This document shows positions 54,428 to 55,150 of a stretch of 55,150 nt of DNA, one piece after another. Source of the stretch: an uncultured Clostridia bacterium (GTDB taxonomy: Bacteria; Bacillota; Clostridia; TANB77; CAG-508); assembly GCA_947626295.1 (NCBI GenBank), contig CANQRS010000001.1, forward strand, positions 1 to 55,150, written 5' to 3'. Position numbers and translations under genes: made by a program. Every line of letters starts with the position of its first letter. Positions within the stretch are counted from its first letter, which is position 1. The notes under the pieces were generated by a model. That model was given only the letters and a program-made list of their open reading frames with translations, was not told the DNA's origin and searched no databases.

Positions 54428-55150
54428 CTAGAACGCCAACGCCAAGCGACACGAACGATTCGTACTGTCAGAGCCATTGTAGTCGCTGAAATTGAACACA
54501 CCTGCGTAACTACTACTGCAAACGCCTCCACGGTAGAAGAACGGACGAGTGCTGTACGGGAAGTCAGAGTACGCTGACTCCCACGAACCAGGAAGACTAT
54601 TGCCTGAGCCTGAAGTCTCATAGACTGCGTCTCCTTTTATGTTAACCGCTGCGTTGTAATTATTTGTGTAACCGTCACTAGAACCCATTGGGTATACGAA
54701 TTTATACTTCGTCGACGTCGATGGACTTACTGTGTACATTTCTTTTCCATAAGTTGTTAAATAACTGTTACTGTTGTTTACATAACTTGCTGTGTACTCA
54801 TAAGCTCCTCCGTTTAAGTCATATACTCCATAAGCATTCAATGTTGTACTTTGATTGTAATATGTACTACTACTATATATACTCGATTCTGAATTTGTTC
54901 CTCCTGTATAATAACTACTACTTGTATTTTGTGCAACTTTTGTCTTATTTGTTCCATATTTACTGTATGATAAATATACCACTGCTCCCCATTCACTATT
55001 CTTCATTTGATGGCAATTTCCAAAACTTGTATGACTACTCGAGCTTCCGTCTGATGAACTTGTTCCTGTTTCTCCAAATGTTTGTCTCATTGCGTAGTAA
55101 TAAAAATCTCCTGTTGTTGTACTCCTTAAACTTGCTACCCCTGCTTTGAC
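54428..55150 (-). CDS. C-terminal part of a Ser/Thr/Asn-rich surface protein ending in a C-type-lectin/FGE-sulfatase-like fold (5' end outside window)
   Basis: HQMKNSEWGAVVYLSYSKYG, GVYDLNGGAYEY, FFYRGG......AGVFNF.........R.A motifs; ORF is open to the window edge. Confidence 0.6.
   Translation of the reverse strand, partial: VKAGVASLRSTTTGDFYYYAMRQTFGETGTSSSDGSSSSHTSFGNCHQMKNSEWGAVVYLSYSKYGTNKTKVAQNTSSSYYTGGTNSESSIYSSSTYYNQSTTLNAYGVYDLNGGAYEYTASYVNNSNSYLTTYGKEMYTVSPSTSTKYKFVYPMGSSDGYTNNYNAAVNIKGDAVYETSGSGNSLPGSWESAYSDFPYSTRPFFYRGGVCSSSYAGVFNFSDYNGSDSTNRSCRLALAF

Follow-up and report, generated by a model that had tools for sequence, protein, structure and literature searches.

The end of the gene at the right-hand margin of a contig from an uncultured gut Clostridia bacterium (contig CANQRS010000001.1 of the NCBI GenBank assembly GCA_947626295.1, here C1) is very probably a variable region (VR) written by a diversity-generating retroelement (DGR), a system in which a template repeat (TR) is copied by a reverse transcriptase (RT) into a target gene. 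The window, that is, the whole stretch of DNA that was analyzed, is the complete contig of 55,150 nt, and the block in question occupies 54423..54616 on the minus strand. It belongs to a fragmented metagenome-assembled genome (MAG) of 1.26 Mb in 75 contigs, with 28% GC and an estimated completeness of 94.6%. DGR VRs typically lie in the C-terminal C-type lectin (CLec) fold of target proteins, are rewritten from the TR by adenine-specific mutagenesis, and end in a GC-rich element for the initiation of mutagenic homing (IMH) that is followed by a hairpin. To our knowledge, no natural system other than DGRs directs hypermutation to a chosen segment of a gene. The original prediction, made from the window alone, had suspected a DGR variable region and had suggested that the TR, avd and RT genes may lie outside the window. 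The remainder of the genome bears this out, as RT and avd are found on contig C37, three TRs are found on contig C72, and the differences between TRs and VR are biased toward adenines. The DGR status of the block rests on these parts, on the adenine-biased TR/VR relation, on conserved RNA structure, and on canonical orthologous systems.

The target gene is represented by its 3′ part, 240 codons and a stop codon, in an open reading frame (ORF) at 54428..55150 (minus strand) that is cut by the contig end and that encodes the C-terminal domain of a large surface protein. The C-terminus of its product, ...FFYRGGVCSSSYAGVFNFSDYNGSDSTNRSCRLALAF followed by the stop, is the tail quoted earlier. The VR comprises 189 coding nucleotides, including the stop codon (54428-54430), and 5 nt (CACTT) beyond it. 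Homology to the C72 repeats starts abruptly at ACTTCAGGCTCAGG (window position 54616) and stops 5 nt past the stop codon (54423); in BLASTN, the VR is 79-80% identical to C72 positions 90-283, 372-568, and 1057-1250, and both the 5′ and the 3′ boundaries are sharp. Within the VR, the substitutions at template adenines are held by a diversified core (approximately 54457..54595, minus strand), while the GC-rich 3′ end at 54423..54454 (minus strand), which reads TCGTGTCGCTTGGCGTTGGCGTTCTAG and then CACTT, is invariant and is a candidate IMH-like homing element.

The composition of this block is anomalous. Both the window and the genome average 28% GC, with a standard deviation of 4.9% for 192-nt windows; the VR has 52% GC and 18% A, and the 192 nt at 54428-54619 that span it reach 52.6% GC, a value attained by only 8e-5 of the sampled genome windows. 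Recomputation matched all earlier hand counts exactly. The five 60-nt blocks from 54421 to 54720 have 50.0, 48.3, 55.0, 46.7, and 41.7% GC, compared with 28.3% in block 54721-54780, and the coding (minus) strand contains 20 A in 114 nt (17.5%) at 54428-54541, compared with 28 A in 60 nt at 54721-54780. The description of the entire segment 54428-54720 as adenine-poor needs to be narrowed, as adenine depletion (9-11 A per 60 nt) is limited to 54421-54600, which corresponds to the TR-homologous block 54423-54616. The adjoining stretch upstream of the VR (54617..54720, minus strand) is moderately GC-rich (42-47%), has a normal adenine content (20-21 per 60 nt), and lacks homology to the TRs; these ~100 nt may be a remnant of a once longer templated region. 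The VR contains about 14 fewer adenines than the 48 of the template, and it is adenine-poor because template adenines were replaced by other bases on copying from a template of 47-49% GC. Thymine is not enriched in the VR, so the high GC content of the TR lineage would not follow from adenine avoidance alone.

The repeats on C72, a contig of 2.6 kb, form a tandem array of three stand-alone TRs (TRa, TRb, and TRc), each of 189-192 nt, which end at positions 278, 563, and 1245. They were returned by the search that the original prediction had proposed, namely one for near-repeats of the gene end differing mainly at adenines, together with an RT and an avd-like gene: three near-repeats, differing preferentially at adenines, were found on C72, and the single RT with avd was found on C37. 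The C72 copies have no gene body or ORF upstream and read ...GGNYNNSNAGVFYFNNNNGNANDNYSCRLALAF. They have the textbook look of DGR template repeats, with 15, 12, and 16 AAY (Asn) codons in the three TRs versus 4 in the window VR, and with TR adenines distributed as 22, 21, and 6 over codon positions 1, 2, and 3. In a BLASTN search of 54300-54800 against the genome, the three C72 copies were accompanied by gene ends on C39, C74, and C75 and by distant paralogues on C11, C34, and C44. An 18-nt core, TTGGCGTTGGCGTTCTAG, occurs genome-wide only in four VRs (C1, C39, C74, and C75) and in the three TRs. The 27-nt sequence TCGTGTCGCTTGGCGTTGGCGTTCTAG is identical in all four VRs, in TRa and in TRc, and TRb differs from it at two bases (TCGTGCCAC...). 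The GC-rich end common to VRs and TRs extends over 32 nt, except that in the C75 VR it is limited to the 27 nt that finish with the stop codon. Right after GCACTT the flanks diverge, the VRs continuing with T(A/G)A... and the TRs with CGATAC; the exceptions are the C39 VR, which has the TR-type C, and the C75 VR, which diverges directly past the stop (TAGTATAAA).

The bias toward adenines is most clearly seen in the alignment columns where all three TRs agree. In these, the window VR deviates from the TRs at 16/36 A, 2/34 C, 1/39 G, and 1/42 T, which corresponds to 16/36 (44%) of adenine columns versus 4/115 (3.5%) of all others (Fisher's exact test, p=1.3e-8). Thus, 80% of the differences are at A, and all 16 A-site changes fall in codon positions 1-2. 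When a single TR is used for comparison, only 56% of mismatches are at A. No adenine bias was detected between the TRs themselves, as only 6/23 differences between TRa and TRc are at A. Between the C1 and C75 genes, identity is 92% over the 300 nt that precede the VR and 77% within the VR itself.

The enzymatic part of the system is encoded on C37. The single RT of the genome is located at C37:9394-10506 on the minus strand (RVT_1, 65-66 bits, cut-off 29.6); its ORF is intact, encodes 370 aa, and contains the motifs IGNYTSQ and YMDD. The start of the RT gene is overlapped by a gene for a 121-aa Avd protein (NF033474, 83.6 bits, cut-off 80; bAvd PF22296, 75.7 bits, cut-off 40), and just upstream of avd lies a gene for a 146-aa protein with MutS domain I, referred to as MSL for MutS-like (PF01624, 38.6 bits, cut-off 20.6). 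RT, Avd, and MSL are all intact full-length ORFs. The surroundings of the RT on C37 (pilin-like and Lon-like genes) show no synteny with the 80 orthologous RT loci described below. A gene of ~119 aa is divergent from the MSL-avd-RT operon (C37, locus L007, 11471-11830, plus strand), gives a weak, sub-threshold match to ribbon-helix-helix proteins, and is found in the same place in ~36/80 orthologous RT loci; a role in regulating the cassette is possible.

Orthologous loci in gut Clostridia show how such a system is organized when its parts lie together. RTs of the same genus are 69-72% identical to that of the window genome, and their loci consist of MSL-avd-RT, a single TR on the opposite strand, and a VR at the end of the target gene; TR-to-VR mismatches at adenines amount to 13/14 and 15/15. 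A scan of species-representative genomes revealed 80 orthologous RT loci (56-75% identical), all from uncultured gut Clostridia MAGs of human, rabbit, and mouse origin. The avd gene is present in 80/80 and MSL in 77/80. Of these loci, 71 have sufficient downstream sequence, and a TR module occurs within 4 kb in 62 of them; in 56 of the 62, the module follows the RT gene in convergent orientation, most often at a distance of 85-270 nt. Since the TR is normally convergent to the RT in this clade, it must be a separate transcript. In 8-9 of the 71 loci, no TR module is present within 4 kb of the RT (~11%), as in the window genome. A location of TR and RT on different strands has also been noted by Wu et al. 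2018 (PMC5758913). By analogy with these systems, action of the C37 RT in trans on an unlinked TR array is plausible.

Arrays of modules are found at three of the orthologous RT loci. Downstream of the RT, five modules occur in L117, a locus of a rabbit-gut Clostridia MAG (3335-5934), and four tail cores with two complete TRs resolved occur in L095 (5097-7999); two modules occur in L129. In L117, a homologue of a PD-(D/E)XK transposase-like gene (PF12784) separates the five-module array from the RT, and the corresponding gene of the window genome (46% identity; 80.8 bits) follows the array on C72. This gene is multi-copy in the window genome (C72 2083-2637, C43 12342-12896, C41, and C7), and a repeat of this kind probably breaks the assembly at C72. 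The other end of C72 falls inside a repeat unit, so further TR modules may exist. One module of L117 is partly adenine-depleted and VR-like, as is the 3′ part of TRb; this hints that array members may themselves be rewritten.

The TRs of this clade are embedded in a conserved structured RNA. They are preceded by (A)GGGATTAAACT and followed, past the TR, by GCACTTCGATAC and a conserved tail. An 11-bp long-range clamp is formed by GGGATTAAACT, located just 5′ of the TR, and AGTTTAATTCC in the tail. Across 26 loci, 286/286 cells of the clamp pair (100%), with compensatory double changes in 6/11 pairs; none of 500 shuffles was as good, and slid controls paired in 14-69% of cells. The core of the 3′ tail (~130 nt) contains 25 pairs, 14 of them with compensatory changes, and 95.9% of its cells pair versus 32-52% in slid controls. 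The scaffold was examined in C72 (locus L002, 60-1750) and in 26 loci such as L014, L016, and L117. By BLAST, the tail was detected in 32/151 sampled genomes of the family, representing 19/50 genera, and a covariance model gave three matches in the window genome, all on C72; no Rfam family matched C72 or the RT locus. On C72, the array is ordered as TRa, with clamp and TR and without a tail of its own, followed by TRb and TRc, each with clamp, TR, and tail. In a fourth module (~1570-1747), a motif resembling the clamp, CTAGGGATTAATG, is followed by a complete tail core (87 bits, model R1), with no template repeat in between; it is either decayed or deliberately "empty". Handa et al. reported that cDNA synthesis needs RNA elements on both sides of the TR, among them a distal duplex, and such elements were predicted in 207/278 Avd-type DGRs (bioRxiv 10.1101/2023.10.23.563531). 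The clamp and tail found here match those elements.

The window gene is not the only target. Its product is 86% identical to the C75 paralogue over 239 aa, and further related paralogues are encoded on C74, C44, C11, C73, C39, and C34. Sister VRs with the identical 27-nt 3′ end are present in the three paralogous genes on C39, C74, and C75, and at least four paralogous genes (C1, C39, C74, and C75) are DGR targets. The paralogues without the conserved 3′ end (C11, C34, and C44) have AT-rich, decayed tails with ordinary codons. Among them, C44 10768-11679 is a pseudogene with an in-frame stop that has lost most of the VR, while C11 15429-16463, encoding a pseudopilin-like protein of 497 aa, and C34 17970-18344 have AT-rich, non-templated tails. 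The targeted gene at C39 15484-15939 apparently lacks ~120 codons of the domain, and AAA-ATPase_like genes (PF09820) flank the targets on C74 and C75. The family of the variable domain is large, with 2866 clusters (50% identity) at E<=1e-3. Its typical relatives are proteins of ~530 aa from Clostridia MAGs with a prepilin-type N-terminus, annotated as "type II secretion system protein" and pseudopilin-like, and the DGR-targeted copies of the window genome are located at the ends of much longer Ig/FN3-repeat proteins.

Taken from the known DGR mechanism, the following sequence of events can be proposed. A TR RNA module would be transcribed from the C72 array, elsewhere in the genome than the target, and would fold with its conserved 5′ clamp and 3′ tail. 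The folded RNA would then be bound by the Avd/RT complex encoded on C37, probably together with the MutS-like protein, and reverse transcribed with random nucleotides inserted opposite template adenines. The resulting cDNA would replace the VR by homology, anchored at the common GC-rich 3′ end. Rewriting would thus hit ~20 codons of the Asn type, located at the tip of the domain with the lectin-like character, while codons of the scaffold would be spared.

Several observations weigh against this account and are considered together. One concerns the templates: the window VR has 19, 18, and 18 non-A mismatches to TRa, TRb, and TRc, respectively, and even the minimal-cost mosaic with two switches (TRb 1-48, TRc 49-68, and TRa 69-189) leaves 10. 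Published DGR pipelines allow fewer than four non-A mismatches (PMC6642488), and every assembled TR exceeds this number. The RT has no TR beside it in the assembly, and neither BLAST nor the covariance model detected a TR or tail on C37, which extends 9.4 kb to one side of the RT and 6.7 kb to the other; the array is thus at least 6.7 kb from the RT. The genome being a fragmented MAG, C72 could also come from a co-binned close strain. Before the TR modules, only weak 9/12 promoter matches occur, not meaningfully above shuffles. In a fold of 54290-54450, the IMH-like end is not directly followed by a short GC hairpin; hairpins are present only farther off, 40-130 nt downstream of the VR end. 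The last group of such observations concerns the protein fold. The FGE-sulfatase family (PF03781) scores 18.9 bits on the truncated window protein and 16.9 bits on the C75 domain, below the cut-off of 23.3. Two AlphaFold models, based on 51 and 122 sequences, were poor (pLDDT 50.7 and 62.7), and a Foldseek comparison of these low-confidence models with the PDB gave a best E of 0.7. Searches of PDB sequences with phmmer and with profiles gave no significant match, pFGE being reached by profile at E=0.86 only. With regard to the CLec-type C-terminal domain named in the original prediction, the window protein remains under the cut-off, an orthologue (G015) is above it (23.8 bits), and 9/51 homologues match at E<=0.01. 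A lectin-like fold of FGE-sulfatase type is weakly suggested by these sequence matches.

A single assembled TR or a simple mosaic was rejected as the source of the window VR, given 18 and 10 non-A mismatches, respectively. Of the four non-A mismatches to the TR consensus, three (block positions 149, 154, and 159) recur as mismatches in the VRs of C75 and C39, where the bases vary. This is most simply explained by an unassembled TR variant, with adenines at these three positions, as the source of the VRs; the alternative is that the VRs are old. If they are old, the block could be a fossil, once written by the DGR and no longer rewritten, with a TR array that has since parted from the RT cassette and drifted. 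This is rather unlikely, yet a considerable number of observations would fit it, as, apart from the mismatches to every assembled TR, the TRs and RT are on separate contigs, one array module has no TR and TRa has no tail of its own, the paralogues on C11, C34, and C44 are clearly decayed, and 8/71 orthologous RT loci also lack a TR module within 4 kb. A dead system, however, does not account well for intact genes of RT, Avd, and MSL, nor for the 27-nt 3′ end that is identical in four VRs and two TRs, which in a genome of 28% GC argues for continued selection or homogenization. Only 4 of 115 non-A columns common to the three TRs differ in the VR. Moreover, columns 149, 154, and 159 differ in two other well-preserved VRs too, which points to an unassembled TR variant rather than to decay, and the start of C72 within a repeat unit leaves room for such templates. 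In our opinion, the DGR origin of the block is very likely, and the question of whether diversification is ongoing is about evenly balanced; continued rewriting of this copy, action of the RT in trans on an unlinked array, and the choice of TR are matters on which we infer rather than observe.

The remaining explanations dispense with the RT. The several non-identical, promoterless cassettes of C72 with their conserved flanks, and the mosaic look of VRs such as that of C1, which follows TRb, then TRc, and then TRa, recall silent cassettes of the pilE/pilS type that donate sequence by homologous recombination independently of an RT. Gene conversion, however, gives no focus on donor adenines in codon positions 1-2; the cassettes bear the RNA scaffold of DGR templates, genes for RT, Avd, and MSL are present, and orthologous loci show pure A-to-N patterns beside an RT. 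Cassette switching of this kind is thus very improbable as a replacement for DGR action, although recombination among TRs may take place in addition to it. Even less credible is a foreign origin of the GC-rich C-terminal module, acquired through horizontal transfer or through recombination; the latter had been named originally as the main alternative, and the abrupt shift in composition could speak for such an event. The closest relatives of the block are seven copies in the same genome, its composition corresponds to the 47-49% GC of the resident TRs, the same domain is encoded with AT-rich codons in paralogues, and the exact 3′ motif was not found in metagenome or species-representative collections.

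With the block understood as a DGR-written VR, a more specific proposal can be made, albeit tentatively, about the array. C72 could be a working library of alternative templates that is uncoupled from the RT: each module would fold independently with its own clamp and tail, one MSL-Avd-RT set would act on them in trans, and at least four paralogous surface-protein genes would be rewritten. The mosaic VRs would then arise by successive partial retrohoming, combining a switching of scaffolds with adenine hypermutation. The modules may also occasionally be rewritten themselves, considering that the homing end is common to them and the VRs and that TRb and one L117 module are partly adenine-depleted.

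Near-identical strains, in which VRs could be compared, were not found by patterns covering the whole VR or a 21-nt IMH in metagenome contigs, nor by the 21-nt pattern in species-representative genomes; the identity look-up of the neighboring rubrerythrin returned no near-identical strain either.

Further features are located downstream of the VR. The 161-nt region 54290-54450 folds as DNA with z = -4.5, and 0/200 shuffles fold as well. It includes a weak hairpin in the 3′ untranslated region (54348..54388, minus strand; AACATCTT...AAGATGTT), the sequence of which is conserved 3′ of the C39 and C74 VRs, and a strong extended hairpin (54294..54340, minus strand), also in the 3′ untranslated region. 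The latter differs from the short GC hairpin that directly follows the IMH of phage BPP-1, and it may be a structure of the transcript end or of the target site. Two adjacent small ORFs are located at 53123-53248 and 53288-53410 on the plus strand (41 and ~40 aa). Their products have Cys/Gly/Asn-rich ends around a hydrophobic core (MCCCNNDNN...FCGGCGCNGENRNCCNYNNS and MPENRSCGGCGFGFGDDCCW...FFCCGGNRNNCC), and the pair may represent a family of small peptides of the membrane or of the secreted type.

The identification of this system has several consequences. DGR action accounts for a sharp compositional anomaly in a gut Clostridia genome of 28% GC, and it singles out a family of pilus-like or Ig-repeat surface proteins as ligand binders able to evolve rapidly. 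The system would escape standard detection because its TR array lies apart from the RT and every assembled TR exceeds the limit of fewer than four non-A mismatches; DGR finders centered on the RT would probably label this RT an orphan and overlook the four targets. The clade-wide TR scaffold, with its 11-bp clamp and ~130-nt tail, provides a handle of both sequence and structure for finding unlinked TRs. In addition, a TR module that is compact and apparently independently transcribed could be tested in DGR engineering.

Among known systems, the prototype of mutagenic retrohoming is the DGR of Bordetella phage BPP-1, with its mtd VR, avd, TR-spacer RNA, and brt. As in BPP-1, the VR in the window forms the last codons of a receptor-binding-type protein, the TRs are rich in AAY codons, differences are concentrated at template adenines, an Avd/RT pair is encoded, and a GC-rich 3′ end is common to VR and TR. 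The TR RNA is also flanked in both cases by structured segments that include a long-range duplex (bioRxiv 10.1101/2023.10.23.563531). In contrast to BPP-1, the system described here is chromosomal rather than phage-borne, has three tandem TR modules instead of one, and includes an additional MutS-like gene and at least four targets. Its TR array is apart from the RT, while in its relatives the TR is convergent to the RT; the short hairpin directly after the IMH-like end is missing, and every assembled TR differs from the VR at some of the non-A positions.

The MSL accessory gene defines DGR "Architecture D", to which the DGR of Legionella pneumophila belongs (Wu et al. 2018, PMC5758913). The two are likened by gene content, a small MutS-domain-I protein encoded with avd and RT. 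The present system differs in its host, a small-genome gut Clostridia MAG, in its pseudopilin-like or Ig-repeat targets, and in the TR array. TvpA of Treponema denticola has a C-type lectin fold of FGE-sulfatase type, and the DGR of this bacterium serves several targets, some of them remote. The window system resembles it in the weak FGE-sulfatase-type signal and in the combination of one RT with several scattered VR-bearing paralogues. In T. denticola, however, the accessory gene is HRDC and not MSL (PMC5758913), and in the window system the fold is only a candidate.

DGRs with more than one TR are also known, an example being Stenotrophomonas sp. SKA14 with two TRs and six VRs (Yan et al. 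2019, PMC6642488). In both cases, several non-identical TRs serve several VRs; here, in contrast, the array is on another contig than the RT and beside a PD-(D/E)XK transposase-like gene, as in L117. In Bacteroides, DGRs diversify the tip adhesins of type V pili (bioRxiv 10.1101/2024.11.15.621889). The likeness consists of a gut bacterium as the host and of pilus-associated, adhesin-like proteins, since homologues of the window domain have a prepilin-type N-terminus. The phylum and the type of pilus are different (here a type IV/T2SS-like pseudopilin), and the window gene belongs to much larger Ig/FN3-repeat paralogues. The system found here is of a known kind, with an unusual split layout in which a template array is uncoupled from the RT, several paralogous genes are targeted, and the VRs match no assembled module.

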